Source: an uncultured Exiguobacterium sp. (GTDB lineage: Bacteria; Bacillota; Bacilli; Exiguobacteriales; Exiguobacteriaceae). From it: a stretch of DNA of 32,000 nucleotides. Shown piece after piece: positions 4,300 to 26,822 of this stretch (positions are counted from its first letter, which is position 1; the number at the start of each line of letters is the position of its first letter). The notes below the pieces were generated by a model. It did no database searches. It was not told the DNA's origin and saw nothing but the letters and a program-made list of their open reading frames with translations. Where the stretch lies: the NCBI RefSeq assembly GCF_913775715.1, contig NZ_CAJYMC010000001.1; one strand, 5' to 3'. Made by a program: the position numbers and the translations under genes.

Positions 4300-4339
4300 C
4301 GCTCCACTCCTTTCTGAAGTACTGGCTTTCCTCCTGTTC

Positions 4340-4366
4340 TACGCAAATCATCTAGAAAATGTTTCA
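4340..4366 (-). promoter_or_regulatory. Candidate ECF-sigma (SigW-type) promoter for the flotillin operon
   Basis: The minus strand reads TGAAAC-(17 nt)-CGTAGA about 40 nt upstream of the 75-aa ORF. The B. subtilis SigW consensus, as I recall it, is TGAAAC-N16-CGTA, and yuaF-floT is in the SigW regulon. The spacer here is one nt longer than the recalled consensus. Confidence 0.4.
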
Positions 4367-4398
4367 AAATGAAATCCATTTCTTTTCCTTTCATTAAA

Positions 4399-4436
4399 TA
4401 AAAAACGCTTGTCGCCTAAGTGGGACAAACGTTTTT
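4399..4436. terminator. Rho-independent terminator downstream of the HD-MFS operon
   Basis: AACGCTTGTC / GACAAACGTT form a 10-bp stem with one mismatch. A-run on the left and T-run on the right, so a U-tract is present on both strands. Confidence 0.7.
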
Positions 4437-4449
4437 GACTAACGAATAT

Positions 4450-5652
4450 TTATGAGCGGTTCGGTCGTCGAACGATCAGTCCGTAATAAAGGATGAGCGC
4501 CAGACAATCGAGTGTCATGATGATCAGACCCATCGGAACAGCCGATTGCTCTCCCATGATGCCGACAAGTGGTGACACGAGCGAACCGACGAGCATCGGT
4601 AAAAGTCCAAGGAGTGCCGAAGCACTTCCAGCCGTTGCTCCGTAATTTTGCATCGCTAAGGTAAAACCAAGCGTTGAGATCAATCCGACGCTTGAGACGA
4701 CGAAAAACAGAGGAATCATGACGAAAATCAACTGATCCGTTAACGTCAAAGCGAGGAACAATAAGATACTCGCACTCGCAACGATCGTCAAACTGATTCG
4801 CATCAGCCGCTCTGAATCGACACGACCAGCAAGACGACCGGCGATTTGAGCTGCTAAGATGATTCCGATTCCGTTTAAGCCGAACAAAAAACTGAACTGT
4901 TGCGGCGAAGCGCCATAAATATTTTGTAAGACGAACGGGGAACCGGAAATGTAGGCAAACATCGCACCCATGACGAATGCTTGCGCGAACGCATAGCCGA
5001 TGAAGACACGGTCCGCTAACAAGCGTCCGAACGTCTTCAACGTTGTCGTCAGATTTCCTTCAACGCGTCTCTCGAGCGGGAGTGTTTCCGGTAAACGTAG
5101 CGCAACCGCAAGTAACATCAACGTACTTAAAATCGCCAGTAAGTAAAAGACGAAATGCCAATCGCCGAACCGGAGGAGTTGTCCACCAATGACGGGTGCG
5201 AGAATCGGCGCTGTTCCGTTAACGAGTGACAAGGCAGCAAAGAACCGTGTCAATTCAGGTCCTTCGAATAGGTCACGAACGATTGCCCGGGAAATGACGA
5301 TACCCGACGCTCCAGCTGCCCCTTGGATGAAGCGAAGCGCGATCAACACTTCAATCGTCGGTGCCATCGCACAAGCAAGAGAAGCCAGCAGATAGGCAAG
5401 TAAGGCGAGCATCAACGGTCGTTTACGACCGCGAACGTCACTGAGCGGACCAACAATCAATTGTCCGAGCGCCATTCCAAGCATACAAGCCGTCAAACTC
5501 AATTGGATTAGTGATGCACTTGCGTCAAACGAGCGCGACATATCTGGAAAAGCAGGTAGATACATGTCGATCGAGAGCGGTCCGAGTGCAGCGAGTGAAC
5601 CGAGGATCAAGATCAACGTCAAACGGCGTGGTGTCATCGTCGTCTTCGTCAT
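4450..5652 (-). CDS. MFS transporter, Bcr/CflA drug-efflux subfamily
   Basis: 400 aa, ~12 TM segments. The N-terminal signature LGSLAALGPLSIDMYLPAFPDM and the GPLSDVRGRKRP loop are typical of Bcr/CflA. The start overlaps the upstream HD gene stop by ATGA. Confidence 0.85.
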   Translation of the reverse strand: MTKTTMTPRRLTLILILGSLAALGPLSIDMYLPAFPDMSRSFDASASLIQLSLTACMLGMALGQLIVGPLSDVRGRKRPLMLALLAYLLASLACAMAPTIEVLIALRFIQGAAGASGIVISRAIVRDLFEGPELTRFFAALSLVNGTAPILAPVIGGQLLRFGDWHFVFYLLAILSTLMLLAVALRLPETLPLERRVEGNLTTTLKTFGRLLADRVFIGYAFAQAFVMGAMFAYISGSPFVLQNIYGASPQQFSFLFGLNGIGIILAAQIAGRLAGRVDSERLMRISLTIVASASILLFLALTLTDQLIFVMIPLFFVVSSVGLISTLGFTLAMQNYGATAGSASALLGLLPMLVGSLVSPLVGIMGEQSAVPMGLIIMTLDCLALILYYGLIVRRPNRS

Positions 5653-6782
5653 GACGTCACGTAATCCAAATCATGCAAGACATAAGCGAGGAAAAAGACG
5701 ACCGATGGATTTTCATATGTCATCTGAACCTTTTTGAGTTGTGCCCGATAACCGGTTTCATACTCGACACCGTTTAGTTTACGTTCCATGTTCATCTTGA
5801 TCAACGCATCGAGTTTATCGATCACGTCGACCATTTGACCTTCATACGTCTCGTCTTTTGCTTCAACGACGAACCGACGGAACGGCGTTCGGATGTCTTC
5901 CGGTAAATTGTTGATCAATGTCTCGCCTTCTGCCCGTTCATAAGCTTCGAAGGCTGCCGCTGTGACCGGTGTCGCATGTTTGACAGGTCCAAGAACATCT
6001 CCCGTCGTTCCTTCGACGAGATCATGACACAACAAACGAGAGACGACTTCTTCGATATCGATCGTGACGTTGTATTTTTCCGATTCAATCAATCCATTGA
6101 AAATACCAAGCGAGGCTGCTCGAAACGCATGTGTCGCGTCGTTATCATCAATCGTGTTGAAACGCCCTTTCCAGCGCCGAATCGTATCCATCATCAAGAC
6201 ATTTTCAATGAAATGAGACATCTCGTCCTCTTCCATGACGGACTGCGTCAAGCGACGGACAGAAATAAGTGGGTGTCGTTCCAGAAAAGCCTGTAATTCC
6301 GCTGCTTTTTGTTCGAAAAAGACGGACTCTGTCATCCGCGCTTCCCGGCGCGCATACAACATCGCATCGAACGTATCGATGGCTTCGACGATTCGTCCTT
6401 CCGGTGAATCATCTTCCGCATGAACAAGATACGTCGTAAAGGCTGGTTGAAGCGACTTTGAGAGTAAGGCAACGAGCTGTTCACTTGCCTGTTGCTCCAT
6501 TGCCTGAATGTGCGCATGCAACGTTGGCTCTTTTTTCGTCCGGTGTTTGATCGGCCCCGTGATGACCTCGTTCATGTCATGGAACAAGGCTTTTCCGAGC
6601 AACGTCAGGCGATCGACTGGCGGTTGACCGTCTGCTTCTTCCAAATAGCTTGCCATCAAGCTGAATAAGGCGACACGAAAACTATGACTGGCTGCGTTAT
6701 CCGGAAAACGTGGTGCGTATTCATCCCAACGTGGAACGTTTTGCATCCGCGTCAACATGCGAATGAAATTACCGTTTTGCAT
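5649..6782 (-). CDS. Tandem-duplicated HD-domain phosphohydrolase (two YfbR-like 5'-nucleotidase-type HD modules)
   Basis: 377 aa. Both halves carry the pattern RW...DN.A(S/T)H(S/A)FR.A ... L..HD..E..TG....P(I/V)KH, so there are two H...HD motifs. AGGAGAG SD. Confidence 0.7.
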   Translation of the reverse strand: MQNGNFIRMLTRMQNVPRWDEYAPRFPDNAASHSFRVALFSLMASYLEEADGQPPVDRLTLLGKALFHDMNEVITGPIKHRTKKEPTLHAHIQAMEQQASEQLVALLSKSLQPAFTTYLVHAEDDSPEGRIVEAIDTFDAMLYARREARMTESVFFEQKAAELQAFLERHPLISVRRLTQSVMEEDEMSHFIENVLMMDTIRRWKGRFNTIDDNDATHAFRAASLGIFNGLIESEKYNVTIDIEEVVSRLLCHDLVEGTTGDVLGPVKHATPVTAAAFEAYERAEGETLINNLPEDIRTPFRRFVVEAKDETYEGQMVDVIDKLDALIKMNMERKLNGVEYETGYRAQLKKVQMTYENPSVVFFLAYVLHDLDYVTS

Positions 6783-6796
6783 AAAATCTCTCCTAA

Positions 6797-6827
6797 CGAA
6801 AGACGGGCAGAGAGTACCCTGCCCGTC
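6797..6827 (-). terminator. Hairpin / weak terminator between TerC-2 and the HD gene
   Basis: GACGGGCAG / CTGCCCGTC form a perfect 9-bp stem with an 8-nt loop. On the minus strand only TTTCGTT follows, which is a short U-tract. The hairpin sits directly upstream of the HD gene SD. Confidence 0.45.
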
Positions 6828-6833
6828 GTTGTA

Positions 6834-7598
6834 TTATTTTGCTGATTCACTAGAGCTGCTTCCACTTCGGAACCAACCAATGATCAGAATCAAGGCAAGG
6901 ACGACCCAGAAAATCGTCTGCCAAAGTGTACTCTCTGGAAACTCGTGCGGTAAGACGTCGATCGACGGATGCGCGAGTGTCATGACGACGAGTTTCACCC
7001 CAACCCATGCCACAAGCCAAAATGCTGCTTCTTCGATACCTGGTCGTTTTTGGAGCAAGACGACGAACCAGCTCGCGAAATAACGCATGATGACGAGCCC
7101 GATGATCCCACTGAAAAAGACAACCCAGAATTGTCCTGTATTCAGACCGCCGATCGTTCCACCGATCATCGGTAATGTCGTCGCCATCGCGACGGCAGCA
7201 AGCGTCGAGTCGACAGCGAACGCTAAGTCGGAGAATTCGACTTTAACGACTGTCCACCAAAAATTCGGCGACGCCTTTTGTGAAGCAATCGCGTCCGGTA
7301 CTTGATGTTTATTCGACCGTGCCTCGACGATTCCTTTAAATGCGACATAGAAGAGATAAATCGCCCCGAGTGCCTGAAGCTCCCAAATCGTCGCTAGATA
7401 CGAAGCAAAGAAAATTGCGACGAAACGTAAGACAAGTGCTCCGACGAGACCATAGAAAAGTGCTTTTTTACGTTGATCGTCCGGTAAAGGACGCACGAGC
7501 ACAGCCATGACCATCGCATTATCTGCAGAAAGTAACCCTTGCAAAATGATCAGTACGAGTCCGACGGTCGCATATTGCGTAATTAATCCAATATCCAT
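6834..7598 (-). CDS. TerC family integral membrane protein (paralogue 2)
   Basis: 254 aa with the TerC hallmarks LLSADNAMV, KKALFYGLVGALVLRF and EFSDLAFAVDS. It is clearly paralogous to the upstream gene. Confidence 0.85.
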   Translation of the reverse strand: MDIGLITQYATVGLVLIILQGLLSADNAMVMAVLVRPLPDDQRKKALFYGLVGALVLRFVAIFFASYLATIWELQALGAIYLFYVAFKGIVEARSNKHQVPDAIASQKASPNFWWTVVKVEFSDLAFAVDSTLAAVAMATTLPMIGGTIGGLNTGQFWVVFFSGIIGLVIMRYFASWFVVLLQKRPGIEEAAFWLVAWVGVKLVVMTLAHPSIDVLPHEFPESTLWQTIFWVVLALILIIGWFRSGSSSSESAK

Positions 7599-7753
7599 AC
7601 AAACGAATCCCCTTTTTTGTTCATTCTATTCATTATATGCCGGACATGAGGAAAGAAAAAGAGACCTGCTCTCCTTTTCAACTTCACTCTGTCTCTTATT
7701 CCCGCTGATTGAACAGATGTAACGTGCGCATCTTTCTTTCATACGCTACACAG

Positions 7754-7784
7754 AAAAAACGATCCGTCGAATGACGAATCGTTT
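7754..7784 (-). terminator. Rho-independent terminator after TerC paralogue 1
   Basis: The minus strand reads AAACGATTCGTC-ATTC-GACGGATCGTTT followed by TTTTCT. The stem is 12 bp including one G-U pair. Confidence 0.8.
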
Positions 7785-7791
7785 CAGTCGT

Positions 7792-8649
7792 TTACAGATT
7801 TTGATCGACTTTCTTCTCCGCATCTGGATTGGCTTTCGTCTTCGGTGACGAGAACCATCCCCAAAGTGCGAGACCGACCATGACTGTCCAGAAGAATGCC
7901 TGCCACGGTGTACTGTGAGCAAATCCTTCCGGAAGTTTTAAGGCTTCGAAGATCGTTCCCTCGATCGAAGCGTGGTATTTCGGGTGCTCGAGCGCAAGAA
8001 CGGCTAACTTCACACCGACCCAGGCGACGATTGCAAAGGCTGCGGTTTCAAGGCCTGGACGCTCTGCGAGCAACTTCACGAAGACACGTGCCGCGAAACG
8101 CATGAGGACTACCCCCATCAAACCACCTGTCAGGATAACGATAAAGTGACCGGTGTTCAAACCACCGATTTCGCCTGCTCCCCAGTCCGGAAGAGCAACG
8201 GCGAGTGCGACTGCAGCTAGAATCGAATCGACTGCGAACGCTAAGTCTGCGAATTCGATTTTTGCGACTGTCCGCCAAAATTCACCTTTTGAAACTGGTT
8301 CTTCTGACTTCGGTTCGGCATCGAGTTCATTTTCAGCGCCATGATTCTCACCGAGCTTTCTGGCTTTGACGGTCTTATAAATATGCCGTAGTCCCATGAC
8401 GAGCAAGTACGCCGCTCCAAGTGCTTGGATTTGCCAAATATCGACGAGGAACGAAATCGCGAACAATGCCGCGAATCGTAAGACGAACGCTCCAGCCAGT
8501 CCATAAAAAAGTGCTTTCTTTTGTTGTTCTCCTGGTAAGTGCTTGACCATGACCGCAAGTACGAGTGCATTATCCGCTGAAAGTAATCCTTCAAGCGCGA
8601 TCAAGACGAGTACGACCCAGGCATATTGAAGTAATAACTGCCAATCCAT
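7792..8649 (-). CDS. TerC family integral membrane protein (paralogue 1)
   Basis: Motifs LLSADNALV, KKALFYGLAGAFVLRF and EFADLAFAVDS. I prefer ATG 8649 (MDWQLLLQY..., AAAGGG 9 nt upstream, which aligns with the MDIGLITQY start of paralogue 2). The track start at 8658 has no spacer after the SD. Confidence 0.85.
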   Translation of the reverse strand: MDWQLLLQYAWVVLVLIALEGLLSADNALVLAVMVKHLPGEQQKKALFYGLAGAFVLRFAALFAISFLVDIWQIQALGAAYLLVMGLRHIYKTVKARKLGENHGAENELDAEPKSEEPVSKGEFWRTVAKIEFADLAFAVDSILAAVALAVALPDWGAGEIGGLNTGHFIVILTGGLMGVVLMRFAARVFVKLLAERPGLETAAFAIVAWVGVKLAVLALEHPKYHASIEGTIFEALKLPEGFAHSTPWQAFFWTVMVGLALWGWFSSPKTKANPDAEKKVDQNL

Positions 8650-8739
8650 TTCTGTCATCCCTTTCTCTGCCTATCTGTAAAATCAAAAATACATTGTATG
8701 ACTATGACAAAAACAATAATTACACGTTCACCTGAACAT

Positions 8740-8768
8740 ATACTATAGGATAATATACCCGATTGCAA
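8740..8768 (-). promoter_or_regulatory. Candidate sigma-A promoter for TerC paralogue 1
   Basis: The minus strand reads TTGCAA-(17)-TAGTAT, or alternatively TATAGT at 15-nt spacing. This leaves a 5' UTR of about 85 nt. Confidence 0.4.
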
Positions 8769-8968
8769 GTAAGTTATTCCTTCAGATATGGAATGTGTCG
8801 ATTTTAAGTCGTGCGAGTTTCGTTTATCGAAAGTTCGTGATAAAATTCAAGACAATACTTCTAGTGATGAAACGATGAAACACATTTGCGGAATCATCAG
8901 ACTTGCTCGTCTCTAGCATTCCTGTCATGTTATTACTATTGAAACACTACAAAAGGACAAAGGGGCCA

Positions 8969-9880
8969 ATGAATATGTCTACCTACCCGATTACGTTACC
9001 AACGAAAGAAGAGCGCCATAAGCTGTTCGGTTCGGTACCACCAATCAAAGGAACAAAACCGACTGAAAAAGATAAGATGGTCGACTTGCAAAATACACCG
9101 AAGAACTTCCTGTTCGCACTTGATGCTGTCGGAATCTCAAACGTCAAACATCCTGTCGTCATTCAAGACGGGGACAACACACAAGCAACAGTCGCGACGT
9201 TCGAGCTGTCGACGTCACTCGTACAAGACCGTAAAGGGATCAACATGAGCCGTCTCACGGAACAGCTTGATCAATACCACAACGAAGGTTGGACGGTCAC
9301 GAACGAGTCACTCATTCAATTTGCGCGTGATTTAGCAGATCGCATGGAACAAACGGAAGGTCAATTGACGATCCGTTACCCATGGTTCTTTACACGTAAA
9401 GCACCTGCAACGGGACTTAGTGGTTTGATGAATGCTGAAGTGTGGCAAACAGTCAGTGTCAACACGGAAACAAACGAAGCGACATTGTCTGTCGGCTTGA
9501 CGATTAACGTCACAACACTTTGCCCATGTTCAAAAGAAATCAGCGAATACAGTGCCCACAACCAACGTGGCTACGTCACGATGGAAGCATCGTTACGTGA
9601 TGAAGCAGAAGACTTTGACTGGAAACAATCATTGCTTGATGCTGCGGAATCCAATGCCTCAGCGCCACTTCACCCGGTACTCAAACGTCCGGATGAAAAA
9701 CGCGTGACAGAGATGGCATATGAAAATCCACGTTTCGTAGAAGATATGGTCCGCTTGATTGCTGCTGATCTGTACGAAATGGATCCAATCGCTTCGTTCT
9801 ACGTCGAATGCCGTAACGAAGAAACGATTCACCAACATGATGCGATCGCACGCATCACGTTCGATAAAGACGCACAATAA
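8969..9880 (+). CDS. folE2: GTP cyclohydrolase I type 2 (FolE2 / GCYH-IB)
   Basis: The sequence (KLFGSVPPIKG..., DAVGISNVKHPV, RKGINMSRL, TTLCPCSKEIS..AHNQR) matches the FolE2/YciA family. The track start 8903 is rejected. The start is ATG 8969 or ATG 8975, both with a nearby AAGGA/AAGGGG SD. Confidence 0.9.
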   Translation: MNMSTYPITLPTKEERHKLFGSVPPIKGTKPTEKDKMVDLQNTPKNFLFALDAVGISNVKHPVVIQDGDNTQATVATFELSTSLVQDRKGINMSRLTEQLDQYHNEGWTVTNESLIQFARDLADRMEQTEGQLTIRYPWFFTRKAPATGLSGLMNAEVWQTVSVNTETNEATLSVGLTINVTTLCPCSKEISEYSAHNQRGYVTMEASLRDEAEDFDWKQSLLDAAESNASAPLHPVLKRPDEKRVTEMAYENPRFVEDMVRLIAADLYEMDPIASFYVECRNEETIHQHDAIARITFDKDAQ

Positions 9881-9889
9881 GCAGGCTTG

Positions 9890-9927
9890 CCGTACGTCCT
9901 CTTCACTAGAGGGCGTGCGGTTTTTTT
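9890..9927 (+). terminator. Rho-independent terminator after folE2
   Basis: CCGTACGTCCTCT-TCACT-AGAGGGCGTGCGG form a 13-bp stem with two G-U pairs, followed by TTTTTTT. Confidence 0.85.
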
Positions 9928-9989
9928 ATGTACCGGCATTGCTCTCCGTTTTGCGAGCGTTTACACTTAACTCGAATGGAGGAATGCAC

Positions 9990-11756
9990 ATGTTGGAACT
10001 GATTCCTTTTTTACTCGAGCGACTCGGTATCATGATCATCTTGGCGTTCATCCTCGCCCAGTGGGGACCGACACGCCGGCTGTTGCGTCAACCGGAAGCA
10101 GGCTGGCAATTCCGTGTCCTCGTCTTATTTTTTGCGACGTATGGTATCTTAAGTAACTATACAGGGGTCAAAGTCGACTTAGCAGAATTCTTGCCCCATG
10201 CTTGGCTCGAAGAAGTCGACGGGACATCGGCGATCGCGAATACGCGAACGATGATCGTCGTTATCAGTGGATTACTCGCTGGTCCACTCGGTGGATTGAT
10301 GACCGGACTGATCGTCGGGATTCATCGGTACTCCCTCGGCGGATTCACAGCGTTCGCTTGCGCGCTTTCGACTGTCATCGCCGGCGGTGTCAGCGGCCTC
10401 TTACGCTCCTATTGGCGCGACCGTCTCAGTAGCCAAGCGTTATTGCCCGTGTGTCTGACTGCTTTTTTAATGCTGTTTGAAATGTCACTGATTTTACTGT
10501 TTTCCCGTCCCTTTGATGCGGCCGTTGAACTTGTTCAATTCATCTTCTTACCGATGACACTGATTAACGTTCTAGGTGTCTGGTTGTTCTTATCGATCAT
10601 CCGTCTTGTTGCGCGAGAAGAGGAAACGGTTCGGGCACGAGAAGCCGAACGGTCGTTGCATATCGCTGATTTAACGCTTCCGTATCTGACGCGTGGTCTA
10701 CATATCCATACGGCAGAAGCCGTCGCGGAAATTCTGTTACAACAAACGCGAGCCGAAGCCGTCTCGTTGACGGATCAATCCGTCATCCTCGCCCATATCG
10801 GTATCGGGAGCGACCACCATCAAGCTGGGAGTCACTGGACGACGAAACCGACCGAACACGTCTTGCAGGACGGGCAAGTCCGTCTTGTGACGGAGCGACT
10901 CGATATCGGCTGTCCTGTACCAGATTGTCCGCTCCAAGCCGGCATCATCGCTCCGCTCATCGTCGGGGAAACGACGATCGGGACGTTAAAAGTCTATTAC
11001 CCTCATGCCGAATTGCTCGACGCTGTCGAAGTCGAACTCATTGAAGGATTAGCGAAATTGTTTTCGACACAACTGGCACTCGGGAACGCAGAGCGGCAAG
11101 CTGGTTTACTGAAGGATGCCGAAATCCGGGCACTCGAAGCACAAATCCATCCCCACTTTCTGTTTAATGCGATCAATACGATTTATGCGCTGTGCCGAAC
11201 GGATGTCGAACAAGCACGGACGTTGTTACTTGAATTGTCGACGTTCTTCCGCAGTAACCTCCAAGGCGCGCGCTCAACGAAAATTCCGCTCCAAAAGGAA
11301 CTTGAGCATATCGAGGCGTATACGTCCCTTGAAGCTGCTCGTTTTCCGAATCGACCGTTTCTTGATATCGATTTAGCGGACGAGACAACGTCCTTACTCG
11401 TTCCACCGTTCATCTTACAACCGTTGATCGAAAATGCGTTCCTTCATGCGTTTTCTTCTGAACAGACGGGATATGTCGGGGTGACGGCATGGTGTGAGGC
11501 AGGTCAGCTGTGTCTCGAAGTCGTCGACAACGGACGCGGGATTGACGCCTCGCGTCTTGCCCGTCTCGGTCGAGAAGTCGTTCCGTCCTCAGGCACCGGT
11601 ACCGCATTATTCAATACGGCAGAACGGATTCGAAGTTTATATGGTGAAAAGGGACAATTTACGATCACGAGTGACGGTCAAAACGGCACGACGATCGCGA
11701 TTCGTCTCCCGATTGAAGTCAGAAAGGAGATCCAGCATGCGCACCTTGTTGATTGA
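9990..11756 (+). CDS. Sensor histidine kinase, LytS/BtsS type (5TM-LYT + GAF + His_kinase + HATPase)
   Basis: N-terminal multi-TM LytS-type domain, a GAF-like middle region, the HPHFLFNAINTI H-box and a C-terminal ATPase (DNGRGI, GTGTAL). GGAGG lies 7 nt before ATG 9990. The track start 9759 lies inside folE2 and spans its terminator. Confidence 0.9.
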   Translation: MLELIPFLLERLGIMIILAFILAQWGPTRRLLRQPEAGWQFRVLVLFFATYGILSNYTGVKVDLAEFLPHAWLEEVDGTSAIANTRTMIVVISGLLAGPLGGLMTGLIVGIHRYSLGGFTAFACALSTVIAGGVSGLLRSYWRDRLSSQALLPVCLTAFLMLFEMSLILLFSRPFDAAVELVQFIFLPMTLINVLGVWLFLSIIRLVAREEETVRAREAERSLHIADLTLPYLTRGLHIHTAEAVAEILLQQTRAEAVSLTDQSVILAHIGIGSDHHQAGSHWTTKPTEHVLQDGQVRLVTERLDIGCPVPDCPLQAGIIAPLIVGETTIGTLKVYYPHAELLDAVEVELIEGLAKLFSTQLALGNAERQAGLLKDAEIRALEAQIHPHFLFNAINTIYALCRTDVEQARTLLLELSTFFRSNLQGARSTKIPLQKELEHIEAYTSLEAARFPNRPFLDIDLADETTSLLVPPFILQPLIENAFLHAFSSEQTGYVGVTAWCEAGQLCLEVVDNGRGIDASRLARLGREVVPSSGTGTALFNTAERIRSLYGEKGQFTITSDGQNGTTIAIRLPIEVRKEIQHAHLVD

Positions 11757-12432
11757 AGATGAACCGCTCGCACGTGACGAGCTCCGATATCACGTGACCG
11801 CAGCCGGTCTTGAAGTCGTCGGGGAAACCGGCAGTGTCGAGGAAGCCGAACGACTCGTTCGCTCCCTTCAACCCGACTTAGTCTTTCTCGACATCGAGCT
11901 GACGGACGGAAGTGGTCTTGAAGTCGCCAAACGCTTGAAATCGATGCCACGTCCTCCGGCTCTTTTGTTTGTGACGGCATATGATGCTCATGCGCTTGAA
12001 GCGTTTGAGCTCAATGCTTATGACTACATCTTGAAACCGTATGATCCGGCACGGATTGTCCGTGCGATTGAAAAAGTCGCGCGACCGCTTCCGAAAAAAG
12101 CACCTCGACTTGAACGTTTAGCCGTCGAGACGGGCGAACAACTGAAGTTATTGTCTCCTCAAGATATCGATTACATCGTTGCTGAGAACGGGAAGACGAA
12201 GATCGTCACGGAACATGAGGCGTATCCATCGAACGAGACATTACTCGAACTCGAACGAAAGCTTCAAGATCATCGCTTTTTACGGGTTCACCGCTCGTAC
12301 CTCGTCAACTTATCAGCAATCGATGCCATCGAACCTTGGTTCAACGGGGCCTACAACTTAAAAATTCATCAGATTAATGTGCCAGTCAGTCGGACGTATG
12401 TCAAACTACTGAAAGAAGCGCTCGGGATTTAA
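11737..12432 (+). CDS. LytR/AlgR-family response regulator (REC + LytTR DNA-binding domain)
   Basis: MRTLLIEDEP...DLVFLDIELTDGSG receiver domain, and a C-terminal LytTR domain (FLRVHRSYLVNL). AAGGAG SD. It overlaps the kinase 3' end by 20 nt. The track start 11494 is inside the kinase gene. Confidence 0.9.
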   Translation: MRTLLIEDEPLARDELRYHVTAAGLEVVGETGSVEEAERLVRSLQPDLVFLDIELTDGSGLEVAKRLKSMPRPPALLFVTAYDAHALEAFELNAYDYILKPYDPARIVRAIEKVARPLPKKAPRLERLAVETGEQLKLLSPQDIDYIVAENGKTKIVTEHEAYPSNETLLELERKLQDHRFLRVHRSYLVNLSAIDAIEPWFNGAYNLKIHQINVPVSRTYVKLLKEALGI

Positions 12433-12446
12433 GCGCTTCTTTTTTG
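12414..12446 (+). terminator. Rho-independent terminator at the 3' end of the response-regulator gene
   Basis: AGAAGCGCT / AGCGCTTCT form a perfect 9-bp stem whose loop contains the stop codon, followed by TTTTTT. Confidence 0.7.
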
Positions 12447-12571
12447 TGATTCAAGGTCCATTTTCAACCTTTCATCGGACAAAACCGACACCTCATCTAA
12501 AAATCAAAGAAAGCGCTTCCATAACTTGTATACTAAACCCATCATAGTTCATTCAAGAGGAGGAATTTTAG

Positions 12572-14365
12572 ATGAGCGCTACTCCAATCGTTATTGCTGT
12601 CATCTGTATCTTATTAATCGCGTATCGTCTCTACGGTACGTTCATGGCCGCGAAAGTCTTAAAAATCAAAGATGATCGCGAAACGCCTGCTCATAAACTA
12701 GCGGACGGAAAGGATTACGTCCCAACGAACAAATGGGTCTCGTTCGGACACCACTTCGCAGCGATCGCTGCTGCCGGTCCACTTGTCGGACCTGTCCTTG
12801 CTGCGCAGTTCGGATACCTTCCTGGCTTACTGTGGCTCTTGATCGGTGCTGTCATCGGTGGAGCGGTCCATGATATGGTTGTTCTTTTTGCCTCGATGCG
12901 CCAAGACGGTCAATCGCTGTCTGAAGTCGCTAAAAAAGAATTAGGTCCCGTCGCTGGTTTTTGTGCCGGTCTTGCAATGCTCTTCATCATCACGATCACG
13001 ATGGCTGGTCTATCGATGGTCGTCCTGCACGCCCTTGAACATAACCCATGGGGTACATTCGCTGTCTTCTCGACGATTCCGATTGCGATGCTCGTTGGGA
13101 TTTACTTACGCAAAGGTGGTAATCTAGCACTTGCTTCAACGGTTGGTTTCTTACTGATTCTAGCGGCAATTGGTTTTGGTCCCCAGTTGACGGAAACATT
13201 CATCGGTGATTGGTTCGATCTTTCGTCACGTCAACTCGCGATCGCCCTACCGATCTATGCCTTCTTCGCTGCTGCTTTGCCTGTTTGGCTCTTACTCGCA
13301 CCACGTGACTATTTATCCAGTTTCATGAAGATCGGTGTTTTCCTTGCGTTGATCGTTGGTGTCTTCATCATCAATCCGGATATTCGTTTCCCGGCGTTCA
13401 CGAAGTTTGTTGATGGCGGCGGTCCAATCATCGCTGGTCCAGTCTGGCCGTTCATCTCAATTACGATTGCCTGTGGTGCGATTTCTGGTTTCCACGCTTT
13501 CGTTGGTTCTGGTACGACGCCAAAAATGATCAATCGCTGGAGCGACATCAAACCGGTCGCTTTCGGTGCCATGCTTGTCGAATGTCTCGTTGCCGTCATG
13601 GCATTGATCGCAGCGACATCTCTAGAAGTCGGTGACTACTTCGCCATTAACTCAACTCCTGAAGTATTCGCGACGCTCGGTATGAGCACGGTTTATCTCG
13701 ATGAGCTCTCACGTGAAATCGGTCTTGATCTGGCAGGTCGAACAGGTGGTGCTGTCTCACTCGCCGTCGGTATGACGTTCATCTTCCGCGCCATCCCATG
13801 GTTCAAAGAGATTGCCGGCTTCTTCTTCCAATTCGTCATTTTGTTCGAAGCGGTCTTCATTCTGACAGCAATCGATGCAGGAACACGCGTTGCTCGTTAC
13901 TTGATTCAAGACTTCTTCGGAGAGTTCTATAAACCGCTCAAACGCGTCGACTGGATTCCAGGTGCTATCTTCGCTTCAGCACTCGGAACGTTCTTCTGGG
14001 GCTATCTCCTGTTCTCGGGTGACATCGGTTCGATTTGGGCATTATTCGGGGTATCCAACCAGCTAATGGCTTCAATCGGCTTGATCATCGGAACGACGAT
14101 CATCTTGAAAATCGCTGATAAAAAAGTCTATGCGTTGACGACGTTCATCCCGCTCGTCTACCTTCTGATCACGGTAACGTTCGCGGATATCTGGATGGTC
14201 GCAAACGTCTATGCGAATCCGGATTCTCCAGGTTTCAGCATCTTGAATACAGTCTTGTCCGTCACGATGGGTCTGCTTGCGATCGTCATCACGATCTCAG
14301 CCGTCAAGAAATGGATTGAACTATTGAATTCACCGCGTTGGGAAAATCAAAAACGATCTGCGTAA
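12572..14365 (+). CDS. cstA: Carbon starvation protein A family transporter (CstA/BtsT-type, probable pyruvate/peptide symporter)
   Basis: 597 aa, polytopic. The N-terminal YRLYGTFMAAKVL...D...TPAH...DG.DYVPTNKWV.FGHHFAAIAAAGPLVGP is diagnostic of CstA. GAGGAGG SD. Confidence 0.9.
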   Translation: MSATPIVIAVICILLIAYRLYGTFMAAKVLKIKDDRETPAHKLADGKDYVPTNKWVSFGHHFAAIAAAGPLVGPVLAAQFGYLPGLLWLLIGAVIGGAVHDMVVLFASMRQDGQSLSEVAKKELGPVAGFCAGLAMLFIITITMAGLSMVVLHALEHNPWGTFAVFSTIPIAMLVGIYLRKGGNLALASTVGFLLILAAIGFGPQLTETFIGDWFDLSSRQLAIALPIYAFFAAALPVWLLLAPRDYLSSFMKIGVFLALIVGVFIINPDIRFPAFTKFVDGGGPIIAGPVWPFISITIACGAISGFHAFVGSGTTPKMINRWSDIKPVAFGAMLVECLVAVMALIAATSLEVGDYFAINSTPEVFATLGMSTVYLDELSREIGLDLAGRTGGAVSLAVGMTFIFRAIPWFKEIAGFFFQFVILFEAVFILTAIDAGTRVARYLIQDFFGEFYKPLKRVDWIPGAIFASALGTFFWGYLLFSGDIGSIWALFGVSNQLMASIGLIIGTTIILKIADKKVYALTTFIPLVYLLITVTFADIWMVANVYANPDSPGFSILNTVLSVTMGLLAIVITISAVKKWIELLNSPRWENQKRSA

Positions 14366-14383: not shown

Positions 14384-14415
14384 AAAAGGCAGTGGACGCA
14401 TCCACTGCCTTTTTC
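14384..14415. terminator. Bidirectional terminator between convergent cstA and the ECF operon
   Basis: AGGCAGTGGA-CGCA-TCCACTGCCT form a perfect 10-bp stem, flanked by AAAA and TTTTT. Confidence 0.85.
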
Positions 14416-14426
14416 GTATCTTATGC

Positions 14427-15251
14427 TTAAAACGGATTATAAAAGCGATTACCATCATAGAAAGTGACGACGAATGAGAAAATCGTCAATAGCACTATAC
14501 AACTGATTGCGACATAATCAATCTGGTTCATCGTTTTTTGGTTGTACCACGTCCGTTTTCGTCCGGCACCGAATCCACGGAGGTCCATCGCGTTACTGAC
14601 TGTCTCAATCCGCTCGAGACTCGTAAATAGCAATGGAAGTAAAATCTGGATACTATTGCGCGCCCGTTGCCAAAGCGAACCGTGTGAGACGGCAATCCCC
14701 CGCGCTTCTTGGGCATTCGCGATCGTCCGGAAGTCCGCTTGTACGTCCGGAATATAACGGAGCGCTAAGGAGACCGCAAAAGCGATTTTATATGGAACAC
14801 CAATCCGGTTCAACGAAGAAGCGAACTCCGTCGGATGGGTCGTGACGAGAAACAACACAGCAATCGGAACGATCACACTGTATTTTAAGATGAGATTAAA
14901 CAGATAAAATAACTGTTCTGCGGTCACCGTGAATCGTCCGATGCCTTCGAGTAAGACGTGACGCGACCCATAGATTTCAACGCCCTGCTCTGGTTCGAAC
15001 AGATAAACAGCGAGCGCATTAATCAGGACGAATAGCGCTGTAAAGATCAAGACGAACCGGACTTCCCGAAACCGAATACGCGACAATCGGAATAACACGA
15101 TACTGACTAACCCCATGACAAGTAAGACCCGTGTATCATAGGTGAACATCGTTGCTGTCGTAAATAACAAGAATCCGATCAGTTTCGTCGTTCCTGTCAA
15201 GCGATGAATTGGTGACGTTTTTTCAATATAGCCAAGCATTTCTACAGCCAT
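14427..15251 (-). CDS. ECF transporter transmembrane (T) component (EcfT/CbiQ family)
   Basis: 274 aa with multiple TM segments and the conserved ARG-type coupling helices (NAQEARG, LRGFG). AAGGAG SD. It overlaps the ATPase stop by 10 nt. Confidence 0.85.
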   Translation of the reverse strand: MAVEMLGYIEKTSPIHRLTGTTKLIGFLLFTTATMFTYDTRVLLVMGLVSIVLFRLSRIRFREVRFVLIFTALFVLINALAVYLFEPEQGVEIYGSRHVLLEGIGRFTVTAEQLFYLFNLILKYSVIVPIAVLFLVTTHPTEFASSLNRIGVPYKIAFAVSLALRYIPDVQADFRTIANAQEARGIAVSHGSLWQRARNSIQILLPLLFTSLERIETVSNAMDLRGFGAGRKRTWYNQKTMNQIDYVAISCIVLLTIFSFVVTFYDGNRFYNPF

Positions 15252-16945
15252 TGTTCCCGCTCCTTTCGCTCCGCCGTAATTATGGACTCGACAAATCGTT
15301 CCGGGTCGACTTCAAGGTGCTCCGCTATCGTAAAGAGCGATGTTTGTTTTAAATGGGCATGATGCAGCAATTGTTCTTGATTCAGCAGTCCAAATGATGT
15401 TCCGGCGTAACGGATGCGCCCGGCTTGCACGAGGCAGACTTGATCGCTGTATTCTAAGACGAGGTGCATGTCATGCGTGATAATGAGTAACGTCATCCCG
15501 TCTTCTTTTAATCCTTCTAAAAAATCCATCATATCTGAATAGTGCCGATAATCTTGACCGGCTGTTGGTTCATCGAGAATCAAGATATCCGGTCGTCGAA
15601 CGAGAATCGAAGCAATCGTCACTCGTTTCTTCTGACCAAAACTCAGTGCTTGAATCGGCCAATTACGAAACGGATATAATCCGCAACGACGTAATGTCTG
15701 CTCGAGACGCTCATTTTCTTCCGCCTCACTTAATCTGAGCGCCTGCATCCCGTAGCGGATTTCTTCTTGCACAAGGTGTTTTGAAATCATATGATTTGGA
15801 TTTTGCAGGACGAATCCGATCGTTCCTGCTCGCTCTGCGATTGATTGGTTCGTGATATCGGTTCCGTCAAGTAGGATCTGACCACCTGTCGTCCGTTGAT
15901 AACCACTCAATACTTTCGCAAGGGTGGATTTCCCGGCACCATTCTGACCGACGATCGTCGTCAGTGTTCCTTTTTGAAAAGTCGCCGTAACATTCTCAAG
16001 CACCGGTGTTCCTTGACGATAATGAAACGCCAACTGTTCAAGTTCAAGCAACGCAGTAGCGGTTGCAGTCTCTTTTTGAGGCGTTTCCTCTAAACGCTCT
16101 AACACGTCCGTCTGATTGAACTGTTTTAAAAAGGGATCGACGCGGCTCGGCTGGTCCACAGATTCAACAGTCATACCAGCCCAGCGTGCGGCACTGACAT
16201 AGAGGGGTTCACGCAAGATCGCTTGTTGAAGTACGCCATTACTTAAAATGACATCCGGATGGTCATCGGCAATGATTTCCCCGTCGACCATGACGATGAT
16301 GCGGTCAAACGGAATGACGAGTACATCCTCGATTCGATGTTCGACGACGATCAACGTGCGATTCGTCTCACGTTGCAATCGATCCATAAGCGCCATCGCC
16401 TCTTGACCCGCTACCGGATCAAGATTTGCGAGCGGTTCATCAAATAACAAGATGTCCGCATCTTCGACGAGTACTCCAGCTAAAGCCGCCCGTTGCCGTT
16501 GTCCTCCTGATAGATCATTCAATCGCGCATGTAAGAGTGTCTCGACGTCCGTCATCCGTGCGACGCGTTCGACGATCTCCTGCATTTCCGGTCGCTCGGT
16601 CTGTTTATTTTCAAGCGCAAAGGCGATGTCTTCGCCAACCGATAAACCGACGAACTGTGCATCTGGATCCTGTAACACCGTGCCAATATGCAACGAGCGA
16701 TCAAATAACGATAATTCTCGAGCGTCCTGCCCTTTGATCAGAACCTGTCCTTCCCACGTCCCCGGATACGAGAACGGAATCAACCCATTGATGCACTGAG
16801 CGAGCGTACTTTTCCCCGAACCCGACGGTCCAACGATTAAGATGCGTTCGCCTTCTTGAATCGTTAACTGAATTTGTCGGAGTGTCGGTTCCGACTGACT
16901 CCGATATGTAAATGAAAAGTCCTGAAATTCAATCGCGTTTGTCAT
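15242..16945 (-). CDS. ECF transporter duplicated ATPase (fused EcfA-EcfA')
   Basis: Two ABC cassettes with Walker A GPSGSGKST and GQNGAGKST, and signatures LSGGQRQR and LSFGQKKR. The start is re-called to ATG 16945 (MTNAIEF..., GGGGGAG 6 nt upstream). The track's 22 extra residues are a translated hairpin. Confidence 0.9.
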   Translation of the reverse strand: MTNAIEFQDFSFTYRSQSEPTLRQIQLTIQEGERILIVGPSGSGKSTLAQCINGLIPFSYPGTWEGQVLIKGQDARELSLFDRSLHIGTVLQDPDAQFVGLSVGEDIAFALENKQTERPEMQEIVERVARMTDVETLLHARLNDLSGGQRQRAALAGVLVEDADILLFDEPLANLDPVAGQEAMALMDRLQRETNRTLIVVEHRIEDVLVIPFDRIIVMVDGEIIADDHPDVILSNGVLQQAILREPLYVSAARWAGMTVESVDQPSRVDPFLKQFNQTDVLERLEETPQKETATATALLELEQLAFHYRQGTPVLENVTATFQKGTLTTIVGQNGAGKSTLAKVLSGYQRTTGGQILLDGTDITNQSIAERAGTIGFVLQNPNHMISKHLVQEEIRYGMQALRLSEAEENERLEQTLRRCGLYPFRNWPIQALSFGQKKRVTIASILVRRPDILILDEPTAGQDYRHYSDMMDFLEGLKEDGMTLLIITHDMHLVLEYSDQVCLVQAGRIRYAGTSFGLLNQEQLLHHAHLKQTSLFTIAEHLEVDPERFVESIITAERKEREQWL

Positions 16946-16965
16946 GTCCTTCTCCCCCCAAGCTA

Positions 16966-17012
16966 AATGAGCTATGATCCTGCCGTCTCTTCGCACAGGA
17001 TCATAGCTCATT
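16966..17012 (-). other. Intercistronic 17-bp perfect stem-loop between the ECF S-component and ATPase genes
   Basis: AATGAGCTATGATCCTG (16966-16982) is the exact reverse complement of CAGGATCATAGCTCATT (16996-17012), with a 13-nt loop and no U-tract. It starts 4 nt after the S-component stop. Confidence 0.8.
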
Positions 17013-17015
17013 CGG

Positions 17016-17567
17016 TCAAACTTCGCGTTTCAAGCTGCCTGCTTTACTTCTTGTTTTGGCATACGTGACGAGCAACAACGTTCCAATGACACCGACTGTC
17101 AAGATGTTCGACGTCGCAGCGACAGCCCCTTGGACGAAGACTTTATTCGCTGGCTCCGAGTAAATTAAGATATCGAGAACCGGTGCGATGATGATCCAAC
17201 CGATCGCTTGCACGATGGCTTGTGTGACGTTAAATAAGATGATTTTACGTGTCGTCAATCCACCTTCTTCTAAACGAATCCGGTTAGCGATTAGTCCGAT
17301 GCCAAACCCGACGAAGCCGGAGACGATAACCCAACTCCACCACGGGGAACCGTATAAAATCGCATCTTTTAATCCATGACCAATCAGACCGATCAAACCG
17401 GCTGTGACAGGTCCGAACAATACTGCCATGAATGCGAGGAATGCGTAGGCAGTCTCGATTGATGTGTTCGGTACGCCTGTCGGAATCGCAGCGAATCGAC
17501 TTAAAATAATGAATACAGCTGCTCCGATCCCGGTTGCGACGATCTGTTTTGTCGTAAATCCTTTCAT
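17016..17567 (-). CDS. ECF transporter substrate-specific (S) component, UPF0397-like, substrate unknown
   Basis: 183 aa with ~5-6 TM segments. The pattern ([13 protein letters not shown]..., [25 protein letters not shown]) is what I recall for UPF0397 / ECF S components encoded beside a duplicated ATPase and a T component. ATGA overlap with the upstream gene. Confidence 0.75.
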
Positions 17568-18421
17568 GTTTGATCTCCTCCTTTGATTTGTTGTACGGTA
17601 ACACTCCAGTCATTTCCGATTCCAACTTCAAATGCATGCGCAAACGAACCTTGATTCAAGGCAAGAGCAATCTGATCCAGCGAATTGATGTAAACGACAC
17701 CTGAACCGACTGGCACATCGGCGAACGAATGACCAAAGAGCAGTGTCTGTTCATAGACAATTCGTTCCCGATACGAAATCATTACCTTGACGTGGCTACC
17801 GATGTCGAGACCCGCCTGACGGACGAGAGCGACCGGAATATTCGTCCAGACATTTCCGAAGCGAACATCGAGAATCTCGACGATACCAGTAACACCGCTG
17901 TTCGACGACGAGGCAACTGTCCGGTCGAGCAAAACGATGTCCGAAGCAGGTAAAACGGGTCCTACTTCCTCGAAGGTGATGACATGACTCGATAATCGAG
18001 CACCCGTGAAAGCAAAGATATCCCGTCCGTGGAACGTATACGATTCCCCCATCCGCGGTAAGCGATGCCGTCGATCATCGAGGTGTCTCACTTCAGCAAT
18101 GTATCCGGCTTGCCACAGGTGCGTCAACGTTCCGTTATCCGGTGTGATGATGTATTGATTCGCATGCGTCCGCGCAACGACACTCTTTCGACTTGATCCG
18201 ACTCCTGGATCAACGACAGAAACGAACACCGTTTGCTCCGTCCAGTACGGCACTGTCTGCAGTAAACGATAGGACGCTTCCCAAATGTGGAACGGTGGAA
18301 TGTCGTGCGTCAAATCAAAAATCCGAATCTCTGGATTGATGCTATGGGCTACCCCATACATCGCACTCACTGCCCCGTCACTCACGCCAAAGTCTGATTG
18401 CAATACCAATGCTTCTGCCAT
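17564..18421 (-). CDS. S-adenosyl-L-methionine hydrolase (adenosine-forming), DUF62 / SAM hydroxide adenosyltransferase family
   Basis: The sequence from ATG 18421 ([16 protein letters not shown]...[13 protein letters not shown]...ITPDNGTLT...FHGRDIFA) matches the DUF62 fluorinase/chlorinase-related family. AGGAGGAGG lies 8 nt upstream. The first 86 codons of the track ORF (to 18679) cover a T-box leader and are rejected. Confidence 0.85.
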
Positions 18422-18451
18422 CTCGTCATCCTCCTCCTGCGCGAACGTCCC

Positions 18452-18728
18452 CACAAAAAAAGACACCACGCCCTTATCTCTCAGGACGTGATGTCTGATC
18501 ACGTGGTACCACCTTCGTTCATGGCTCAACTCACGTTCAGCCACCTCTAGGAGTACGAGACTCCATGGAATGCTAACGGTATCCGTCCTACCGGTCGGTT
18601 CTACTAATGAACACGGTTCACGTTCTTCCGACTGCTCCGGGACCATCTTCAAATAACGAAATCGTCTCATTTCCAGCAACAGAGACTCTCTATGGATTTC
18701 TGATCACTTTACTCTTCCCGTCTACGCA
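18452..18728 (-). promoter_or_regulatory. T-box riboswitch leader (probable tRNA-Met specificity)
   Basis: The minus strand carries, in order: Stem I base GUAGACGGGA / UCCCGGAGCA (GA/K-turn); AGAGUA; the AG bay AGAGAG; distal loop GUUGCUGGAAA; specifier loop GAAGAUGG (AUG at 18646-18644); F-box CCGUUA (18579-18574); T-box AACGAAGGUGGUACCACG (18520-18502); antiterminator AGG[UGGUACC]ACGUGAU...AUCACGUCCU; and a competing terminator GACAUCACGUCC / GGGCGUGGUGUC plus U7 (18495-18455). Confidence 0.85.
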
Positions 18729-18759
18729 TATAGATTCAGTTGTCTGAAAATTTAAATTA

Positions 18760-18788
18760 ATAGTACAACCGTTTCATTCCTGACGCAA
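18760..18788 (-). promoter_or_regulatory. Candidate sigma-A promoter of the T-box operon
   Basis: The minus strand reads TTGCGT-(17 nt)-TACTAT, about 30 nt upstream of the Stem I base. Confidence 0.5.
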
Positions 18789-18794
18789 GGTTTT

Positions 18795-19238
18795 TTACTC
18801 AGAAATTTTTAAATTCGTCGTCCGGATCGTTCCCCATGATGACACATCGGCACGTACTTCCAGGGCTTTGGCTTTCTCGTATTGTTTTCCGCTTCCCTGT
18901 TCGACATAATACTGCGTCAACTGTGGAATCGACACGTATTGATCGTAATAATCACCAGCGACACTTCCGAAGAATCGTTCATTCGAAATCCGGTCGATTT
19001 GAGCATAACCAGAAGCATCTGTCTTGAAGCTGACATAGACCCGTCCGTTTTGAATTGTCGGATCTGGTTTTAAATCCGGATATTGAAGCATCACGTATTC
19101 GCCATAAACGGGATCAAACGGATCAAACGGTTCTGCTCGAAAGCGATACGATGTTCCGAACCAGGAGGTCGAAAAAAAACTAACAATCAATAAACCTACG
19201 GCGCACGTCTGCAATATAGGCATGAGATAGCGTTTCAT
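18795..19238 (-). CDS. GDYXXLXY-domain protein (uncharacterised, N-terminal signal/anchor)
   Basis: 147 aa with an N-terminal hydrophobic segment. It contains GEYVMLQY, a close variant of the GDYXXLXY motif, at the expected position. ATGA overlap with the upstream membrane protein gene, the usual partner arrangement. Confidence 0.65.
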   Translation of the reverse strand: MKRYLMPILQTCAVGLLIVSFFSTSWFGTSYRFRAEPFDPFDPVYGEYVMLQYPDLKPDPTIQNGRVYVSFKTDASGYAQIDRISNERFFGSVAGDYYDQYVSIPQLTQYYVEQGSGKQYEKAKALEVRADVSSWGTIRTTNLKISE

Positions 19239-20422
19239 GACGCCACACCTCCTCTACGGCGTAACCACCATAAGACACCAGACAACAGGAAGATGAGGAG
19301 CGCACCGATGAGGAAAAACAAAGACATATTCAAACGATCCCACGCATAGATAACGTATATTGCGATTTGAACGAGAATGAAATAGAGAAAGGCTGGCCAA
19401 ACGACGGCATGACGACGTTCTTGATACAACAGATACAGTAGTGCGGATAGTTCAAAGAGGATGGCGAGTAGAATGGCCTGTTCATCGAGCCACAGGACAC
19501 CGACGAATCCAAGCGGTACGATAAACAATAAGGAGCGACGTTTTTGATAGAGGAAAATTCCCAACCCGATGGATACGATAGCTAGCAGAATCGCTTCTGT
19601 CATGGATGGTAATGCGGCATTTGATTCCGCACGTACAGACAGATAGACGATCGAACTGATGGCAGCGACGACCAGATAGACCATTTCAACGATCCGACGA
19701 TTGGACTCCTCATGAACAAGCCAGAGAACTGGAACAAGTAAAAATAGCGTCCAGACCGGCCATAGGAATCCGTCATACGATACGAGGAGAAACAAGGAGA
19801 GACCACTGAAGAAGAGGAACAGCCAACTAAACAAAAGCGATGGCAGACGTTGACTGAAGTAAAACCAACTGAACGACAACACGACCATCAGACCGAACGA
19901 CGTCCAGTCGAGATAACTCGCCTGCTCCTGACCAAAACCCCCAAGACTCGTAAAGATCGTCCATCCGGAAAGGAAGGCGACGACACCATATGCTTCATGA
20001 CGCCACAGTATATAATGTACTAATGCGGCGACAAACATACACCAACTGAGCAGTGATCCTTCCATCGGCAAGTGAAAACTTTGGACAACAACGAGAATCG
20101 AGGCGCCAAACGCTAGGATTCCACCAATTCGGAAGACGACCGGATGAAGAATACGACGACGTTCCGAAAGATCCGCCATGACGTAACAGCTCCACATGAG
20201 TGCTACGACAAGTCCGATTTTCCAGCCGACCGGCATCGCTTGCCAGTTGGCAGCTAAAAAGCTGAATACAGCCAAGACGACGAAGATCCCTCCAACAATT
20301 AACAAGAGCGGGAGGCGTTGTTTCGTTGAATGTTGCTTTTCGTAATTCATGATTCGTTCGACAGTCGCTTCATCTAACAGACCCGCATCCTGCCACTCAC
20401 GTATCTTGCGTAACTGCTTCAC
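19235..20422 (-). CDS. Polytopic membrane protein, DUF2157-like (usual partner of GDYXXLXY proteins)
   Basis: About 395 aa. A soluble N-terminal helix (LRKIREWQDAGLLDEATVERI) is followed by ~10-11 TM segments. The start is re-called to GTG 20422 (GGAGG 7 nt upstream), because the track GTG 20431 overlaps the SD. The family assignment is from memory of the architecture only. Confidence 0.5.
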   Translation of the reverse strand: MKQLRKIREWQDAGLLDEATVERIMNYEKQHSTKQRLPLLLIVGGIFVVLAVFSFLAANWQAMPVGWKIGLVVALMWSCYVMADLSERRRILHPVVFRIGGILAFGASILVVVQSFHLPMEGSLLSWCMFVAALVHYILWRHEAYGVVAFLSGWTIFTSLGGFGQEQASYLDWTSFGLMVVLSFSWFYFSQRLPSLLFSWLFLFFSGLSLFLLVSYDGFLWPVWTLFLLVPVLWLVHEESNRRIVEMVYLVVAAISSIVYLSVRAESNAALPSMTEAILLAIVSIGLGIFLYQKRRSLLFIVPLGFVGVLWLDEQAILLAILFELSALLYLLYQERRHAVVWPAFLYFILVQIAIYVIYAWDRLNMSLFFLIGALLIFLLSGVLWWLRRRGGVAS

Positions 20423-20543
20423 CGTACCCACCTCCTTCGAAGTGTTAGATATCTATTATTTTCCCGATTTACCCCTGTCTCAAGCCCGAATTCACAGGGA
20501 TTCCAAGCCATTTGTTCAGTTCGTCACAGAATGGTGACAGACG

Positions 20544-24740: not shown

Positions 24741-26782
<2,042 letters not shown>

Positions 26783-26822
26783 TGCTATACGTTTACGTTT
26801 CGTGATTTTCGTGATGTGTACC

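Follow-up and report, generated by a model that had tools for sequence, protein, structure and literature searches.

We report a candidate methionine-starvation operon in a 32,000-nt stretch of contig NZ_CAJYMC010000001.1 (assembly GCF_913775715.1) from an uncultured Exiguobacterium sp.; "the window" below means this whole stretch. The region 14384-18788 on its minus strand reads as a single transcription unit that comprises a promoter, a T-box leader that is methionine-specific by its sequence, four overlapping or tightly spaced genes, and a hairpin terminator. The genes encode a DUF62 S-adenosylmethionine (SAM) hydrolase and an energy-coupling factor (ECF) importer made of an S component, a fused AA' ATPase and a T component. 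The arrangement suggests, as its most economical reading, that SAM is imported and hydrolyzed to methionine, where what the importer carries, and its passage on to the enzyme, are the parts that we infer. To the fuller proposition, an operon induced by methionine starvation whose ECF module imports SAM or another adenosyl-sulfonium for hydrolysis by DUF62 to methionine, we assign a probability of about one half. T-boxes, ECF importers and DUF62 enzymes are each of already known kinds; a full-text search of the literature accessible to us found no link of DUF62 (COG1912) to an ECF transporter or a T-box, and an earlier remark may stand in Rodionov 2009 or 2004, Vitreschak 2008, Kornfuehrer 2020 or Eustaquio 2008.

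The T-box leader and its specifier

A permissive Rfam scan of 18300-18900 matched the leader to the full length of the T-box model RF00230 (model positions 1-219; 86.3 bits, E-value 2.4e-19). The preliminary description of this DNA had read a leader with canonical T-box elements directly from the letters, and each of those elements could be mapped:

18479..18733, minus strand: T-box leader, from Stem I to the antiterminator
18715-18710, minus strand: AGAGTA (RNA AGAGUA)
18691-18686, minus strand: AG bulge, AGAGAG
18679-18670, minus strand: distal loop
18650-18643, minus strand: specifier loop GAAGAUGG, which reads GAA-G-AUG-G
18644..18646, minus strand: specifier codon AUG (Met), as framed by the Rfam alignment, with the conserved purine, a G, next to it at 18643
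18579-18574, minus strand: F-box-like element, CCGTTA
18500..18515, minus strand: T-box sequence AAGGTGGTACCACGTG (RNA AAGGUGGUACCACGUG), with the UGGU bulge at 18511-18508
18455..18496, minus strand: intrinsic terminator of the leader, with a 14-bp stem (18496-18461), an 8-nt loop and a U-run, mutually exclusive with the antiterminator

As in other T-box leaders of the Met class (RF00230), Stem I carries a specifier loop, an AG bulge and a distal loop, the AUG specifier is followed by a purine, AAGGUGGUACCACG supplies the UGGN bulge, and the alternative 14-bp terminator competes with the antiterminator. Through its UGGU bulge (18511-18508), the leader would pair with ACCA at the 3' end of the tRNA; tRNA-Met has the discriminator A, consistent with this bulge. 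No tRNA gene lies within the window. Unlike the T-box leaders of tRNA synthetase or biosynthetic genes, this one stands before a SAM hydrolase and an ECF importer. When the entire window was scanned at the gathering threshold, Rfam missed the T-box and returned a purine riboswitch (described below) as its sole match. The gathering score of RF00230 is 93, so that default pipelines would leave this leader, with its 86.3 bits, without annotation; the low score is due to insertions after Stem I, and the orthologous leader of locus L064 reaches 102.3 bits.

The preliminary description had called the cognate tRNA probably tRNA-Met, and comparison with other genomes strengthens that call. We gathered the T-box leaders found upstream of DUF62 genes, from the window, 19 genome loci and 7 metagenome loci, and found AUG-G at the specifier position in all 27, with no non-Met specifier among them. 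The bases preceding the AUG vary (GAAG-, GAACA-, GAAAA-), and it is this invariance next to variable bases that marks the leader as methionine-specific. In an alignment of the window leader with 19 orthologous leaders, AUGG is invariant and compensatory changes occur at 25 of the 46 consensus base pairs. A GAU (Asp) specifier, which can be read in the window alone, was ruled out because only AUG is conserved across the leaders. Tandem T-box leaders (109.7 and 111.9 bits) were also seen in L062 at 12585-13129; these lie ∼5.4 kb downstream of the DUF62 gene of that locus and are unrelated to it.

The SAM hydrolase and the ECF importer

The four genes of the operon, in order of transcription, are as follows:

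17564..18421, minus strand: DUF62/SAM hydroxide adenosyltransferase (SAM hydrolase), 285 aa, domains PF01887 and PF20257; ribosome binding site AGGAGGAGGA at 18438-18429
17016..17567, minus strand: ECF S component, UPF0397/PF07155, 183 aa
15242..16945, minus strand: fused AA' ECF ATPase, 567 aa, two ABC_tran domains and DUF3744; open reading frame extendable to 17011
14427..15251, minus strand: ECF T component (CbiQ family), 274 aa; PF02361, 110 bits

The first gene had been proposed to encode a DUF62 enzyme and to start at 18421, and both points hold: the start has a good ribosome binding site, and the protein matches PF01887 (167 bits) and PF20257 (71.9 bits) well above their gathering cut-offs (26.3 and 25.5, respectively). 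Its Asp-Arg-His triad (D71, R78 and H131, placed by motif and offset onto PDB entry 1wu8, without superposition) is intact and invariant in family alignments, as are its PDNGTL and LDVRFGN motifs, which are of the PxNGL and IDxxFGN types. This water-activating triad (D68-R75-H127 in PH0463) is present in SAM hydrolases and absent from halogenases (PMC4859513, PMC10491745). The protein falls below the cut-offs of both NCBIfam (R)-SAM hydrolase equivalogs (NF058624, 141.9 versus 350; NF053629, 98.4 versus 470), and we therefore assign it at the family level only and do not call its stereoselectivity. With the characterized enzymes PH0463, StDUF62, SaciSAMH and HvSAMH it has in common the two-domain fold family, the triad and the PxNGL/IDxxFGN motifs; it is only ∼25-35% related to them, and their context is one of damage control as opposed to the starvation-induced import operon proposed here.

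The annotation of DUF62 genes calls for some care. The program-made open reading frame for the window gene (P0001, 17564-18679, minus strand) runs from a TTG at 18679 through the T-box and has 371 aa, and a public protein that is 93% identical is annotated with a length of 360 aa; it seems that public gene calls start too early, within the leader. Several DUF62 proteins (e.g. P0013, P0085 and PDB entry 7ccg) bear the name "DNA-directed RNA polymerase subunit delta", which seems to be an error passed on from record to record.

The remaining three genes encode, as judged from their families and their arrangement in one operon, a dedicated (group-I) ECF importer, which is how the S component, duplicated ATPase and T component had been described at the outset. 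The ATGA overlap of the S gene with the DUF62 gene (17567 versus 17564) and the 10-nt overlap of the T gene with the ATPase gene were likewise found as described. The ATPase scores above the cut-offs of both TIGR04520 (386.4, cut-off 315) and TIGR04521 (352.9, cut-off 330) within one fused protein. Its start is more likely the ATG at 16945 than the position at 17011, since the former has a strong ribosome binding site (GGGGGAGAAGG) and gives a length, 567 aa, that matches that of homologs.

The S component shares 98% identity with a protein of Exiguobacterium indicum, which points to the likely genus of origin, and matches PF07155 with 165 bits. Public databases name it an "ECF-type riboflavin transporter substrate-binding protein", as do PF07155 ("ECF-ribofla_trS") and the NCBIfam model PRK13661 (250.9 bits), and these names are what speaks for its being a riboflavin (RibU-type) transporter subunit. 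We consider that identity highly improbable. Neither a phmmer search of PDB sequences nor a 17-sequence family profile matched the protein to a solved S component, RibU included. The AlphaFold2 model (mean predicted local distance difference test score, pLDDT, 91.3) has the S-component fold and matches FolT, RibU, PanT, ThiT and BioY alike, with a probability of 1.0, template modeling (TM) scores of 0.5-0.67 and 12-22% identity, the match to RibU being no better than those to the other four. We found no flavin mononucleotide (FMN) riboswitch; the module is instead preceded by a Met T-box here and by a SAM riboswitch in L124 (see below), and it comes with a dedicated AA' and T and a DUF62 partner. 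With no sequence match to RibU, a fold equally near to other S components, and no FMN riboswitch found, the label "riboflavin transporter" is unsupported for this S family.

The module is presumably of the MtsTUV/MtsABC type, the "methionine-regulated ECF transporter"; the family is said to have been defined by Rodionov et al. in 2009 from comparative genomics. An S component, a duplicated ATPase and a T component under methionine- or SAM-responsive control are all found here, and the resemblance extends to protein sizes (S ∼185 aa, fused AA' ∼570 aa, T ∼275 aa), to the encoding in one operon and to the methionine/SAM-responsive RNA; the difference is the DUF62 partnership, which we did not meet in the literature searched. 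The preliminary description had brought up this label: the name is attested as a SEED role (PMC5408102), and the SAM-I riboswitch of L124 fits it.

Linkage, regulation and surroundings of the operon

A survey of DUF62-ECF co-occurrence, which the preliminary description had proposed, shows the association to be widespread. One genome per species was scanned with a DUF62 alignment, which gave 80 loci; a full S, AA' and T module adjoins DUF62 in 55 of these, and a further three loci are truncated where the contig stops. The linkage is found in Bacillaceae, Oscillospiraceae, Lachnospiraceae, Erysipelotrichia and Treponema, and in at least four gene orders: DUF62-S-A-T, DUF62-A-T-DUF62b-S, one in which DUF62 lies downstream of the ECF module, and arrangements in which the S component is divergent. 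When all open reading frames of the 80 neighborhoods were clustered, DUF62, S, AA' and T were the only recurrent families, and the DUF62-only loci yielded neither another recurrent neighbor nor a substitute transporter. In the reverse direction, sampling of the S component in metagenomes gave 28 loci with sufficient flank, 18 with DUF62 and 10 without it.

The loci differ in their gene content. A second DUF62 paralog with its triad motifs kept occurs in 18 of the 80 loci (e.g. L030, L054, L057, L060, L063, L072, L075 and L078); it is ∼42% identical to the window protein and has QTDFTY in place of QSDFG and NNEL in place of NSLD. It lies between the T and S genes in all seven loci in which its place was determined (L030, L054, L057, L060, L063, L072 and L078). 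Three S-component subtypes can be distinguished among the loci. A GNAT acetyltransferase gene stands between the first DUF62 gene and the ATPase gene in L060 (7867-8664) and L063 (8196-9773), in the latter fused to GntR and UTRA domains, and its product may regulate the locus or modify the cargo; L072 has at the same place (8029-9723) a 564-aa open reading frame with a similar N-terminus. An M20-family peptidase lies inside or just after divergent-S operons with two DUF62 genes in L053 (4675-6114), L067, L068 and L034 (11191-12636), the Pfam assignment having been checked for L053 and L034. In L110 (6706-8003), a TnpB/IS605 OrfB gene and a RAGATH-18 RNA (64.8 bits) are inserted between the S and ATPase genes. 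Just upstream of S in L097, an S-AA'-T locus without DUF62, is a gene (3790-5766) for a YgiQ-type radical SAM protein (Radical_SAM_N and DUF3362), and L105 has an open reading frame with a near-identical N-terminus in the same position (3868-5832).

Met T-boxes were found in 19 further ECF-bearing loci besides the window (13 from genomes and 6 from metagenomes with AA' in view) and in six loci where DUF62 has no ECF module within the flanks examined. The T-boxes of these six loci place DUF62 itself, whose known product is methionine, in the methionine-starvation regulon. T-box control is limited to Bacillaceae-like loci and is not universal even there: L003 has the operon and an upstream gap of 493 nt in which no T-box was found. 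L124 has an S-AA'-T operon that lacks DUF62 and whose S gene is immediately preceded by a SAM-I riboswitch (5793-5903, 61.7 bits). This was the sole SAM riboswitch in Rfam scans of 32 loci, none being found upstream of DUF62, and a regular-expression search for S-box patterns returned nothing. L147, also without DUF62, has at 4848-11678 in the same direction genes for an MtnA-like protein (IF-2B family), S, AA', T, a PfkB kinase and an S-adenosylhomocysteine (SAH) hydrolase. The L124 riboswitch and the L147 arrangement are, at the level of gene context, independent ties of the ECF module to SAM and methionine metabolism.

The outer transcription signals of the window operon are these:

18783..18788, minus strand: putative -35 hexamer TTGCGT, a weak consensus match; the Exiguobacterium loci L001 and L002 have TTGCAT with the same 17-nt spacing
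18760..18765, minus strand: putative -10 hexamer TACTAT; TA..AT is retained in L001 and L002 (TAAGAT)
14384..14409, minus strand: operon terminator, hairpin GGCAGTGGA-TGCG-TCCACTGCC followed by TTTT, read from the sequence and common to the convergent cstA

The promoter, proposed earlier as TTGCGT-17-TACTAT, holds up in part. Only ∼7 of its 12 positions agree with the consensus, and a promoter scan did not report it; the position and spacing of the hexamers are kept in the two Exiguobacterium orthologs (TTGCAT-17-TAAGAT), in which the sequence further upstream has diverged. The promoter is thus plausible yet not strong.

The genes that flank the operon have no methionine link. Directly upstream of the T-box promoter, overlapping genes (18795-20431, minus strand) encode a GDYXXLXY protein and a DUF2157 membrane protein, a pair that is not kept beside the operon in other genomes. 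On the other side, genes for a LytS-type histidine kinase (5TMR-LYT), a LytTR response regulator and a CstA carbon-starvation/pyruvate transporter follow one another at 9759-14365 on the plus strand, in a row that resembles the BtsSR/LytST-CstA pyruvate-sensing clusters. The purine riboswitch mentioned above (26699-26798, minus strand, 72.1 bits) lies upstream of genes for a phosphoribosyltransferase (26680..26039) and a xanthine/uracil permease (26042..24741), which together make a classic xpt-pbuX operon.

Function of the operon

On the proposed mechanism, uncharged tRNA-Met would pair with the leader at two places, the AUG specifier and the UGGU bulge, which would stabilize the antiterminator over the 18496-18461 terminator and let transcription proceed into the four genes. 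Together with its dedicated AA' and T, the S component would import a scarce adenosyl-sulfonium, most simply SAM, including the spontaneously formed (R,S) epimer; in the cytoplasm, DUF62 would direct activated water at C5' to give L-methionine and adenosine, and the methionine pool would be refilled. Two observations argue for this sequence of events. DUF62 has the Met T-box even where no ECF module lies beside it, which points to methionine as the useful product of the enzyme. The linkage, for its part, is kept in different phyla, despite rearrangements and also where lineages lack the T-box, which indicates that enzyme and importer are coupled beyond shared regulation. There is precedent for an S component encoded with an enzyme that cleaves the imported compound, in QueK-QrtT-QueL (PMC11477304). 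That queuosine system and ykoFEDC (thiamine precursors) resemble the present one as riboswitch- or leader-controlled operons that pair an S component with a cargo-processing cytoplasmic enzyme or binding protein; they differ in cargo class and enzyme family, and in a control that senses a metabolite and not, as here, a tRNA.

Several points weigh against import and cleavage of SAM. ECF importers are usually low-flux scavengers of vitamins, and extracellular SAM is unstable and scarce. The fold of the S component is generic, with no sequence feature that points to a ligand. Rfam scans of the clostridial and Treponema operons revealed no recognizable Met- or SAM-responsive RNA. The coupling of the two partners is not obligatory, since 22 of the 80 DUF62 loci have no ECF module within ∼7 kb and 10 of the 28 S loci have no DUF62. 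The M20 peptidase or GNAT genes of the variant operons hint at other or modified substrates. Finally, DUF62 enzymes use water to split SAM into adenosine and L-methionine, and those characterized are reported, as cited in 2025 papers, to be selective for (R,S)-SAM; archaeal DUF62 knock-outs are reported to accumulate (R,S)-SAM, and another group doubts this hydrolysis as the physiological role and suggests a different function. The preliminary description had called the role of DUF62 unsettled; the physiological dispute indeed continues, and the description was partly outdated with respect to the reported selectivity and in vivo knock-out effects.

The main rival, which we consider possible though rather unlikely, is that the two partners share a regulon and have separate jobs, with the ECF module importing a different nutrient related to methionine (methionine as such, a conjugate or dipeptide of it, S-methylmethionine, 5'-methylthioadenosine (MTA) or SAH), DUF62 only recycling intracellular (R,S)-SAM, and both feeding the methionine pool. 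Such a division of labor would accommodate the six loci with DUF62 alone under a Met T-box, the S-AA'-T modules without DUF62 in about one-third of the S-sampled loci, and the published role of DUF62 in clearance of internal (R,S)-SAM. The SAM riboswitch locus (L124) and the MtnA/AdoHcyase locus (L147), both lacking DUF62, would suit MTA or SAH as the cargo, and the M20 peptidase genes within some variant operons also fit. Against this rival, DUF62 and the ECF module remain neighbors in lineages that have no T-box and after several rearrangements, some of which place DUF62 paralogs between T and S: this exceeds what co-regulation needs.

The published doubts about the relevance of (R,S)-SAM hydrolysis, with the suggestion of another function for DUF62, also leave room for a different 5'-adenosyl cargo (another adenosyl-sulfonium, a SAM analog or a nucleoside natural product) that DUF62 would cleave, with conversion of SAM to methionine as a side activity. 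Two divergent DUF62 paralogs per operon, three S subtypes and the accessory GNAT and M20 genes would agree with such substrate diversity. We regard this as a long shot, as the Met-specific T-box on DUF62 in 27 of 27 leaders points to methionine as the useful product, at least in Bacillaceae.

A more general proposition, for which our confidence is tentative and falls short of that in the operon itself, is that the UPF0397 S module is a high-affinity SAM importer with DUF62 as the dedicated enzyme that cleaves its cargo, so that in Bacillota and some spirochaetes DUF62 would serve mainly for methionine salvage from scavenged SAM and not only for clearance of the damaged cofactor. The paired DUF62 paralogs might then take care of both sulfonium epimers of the SAM found in the environment. 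If the SAM reading is true, two modest, long-standing gaps would be settled together: the substrate of the "methionine-regulated" ECF family, and the physiological context of DUF62, for whose role the present debate offers either (R,S)-SAM damage control or "unknown". SAM would then join the list of ECF importer cargoes, the family-wide "riboflavin transporter" annotation would be corrected, and free-living Gram-positive bacteria and gut Clostridia would be seen to have a route for SAM scavenging. The Met T-box on DUF62, even where no ECF module is adjacent, is new physiological evidence that the enzyme is used under methionine shortage.

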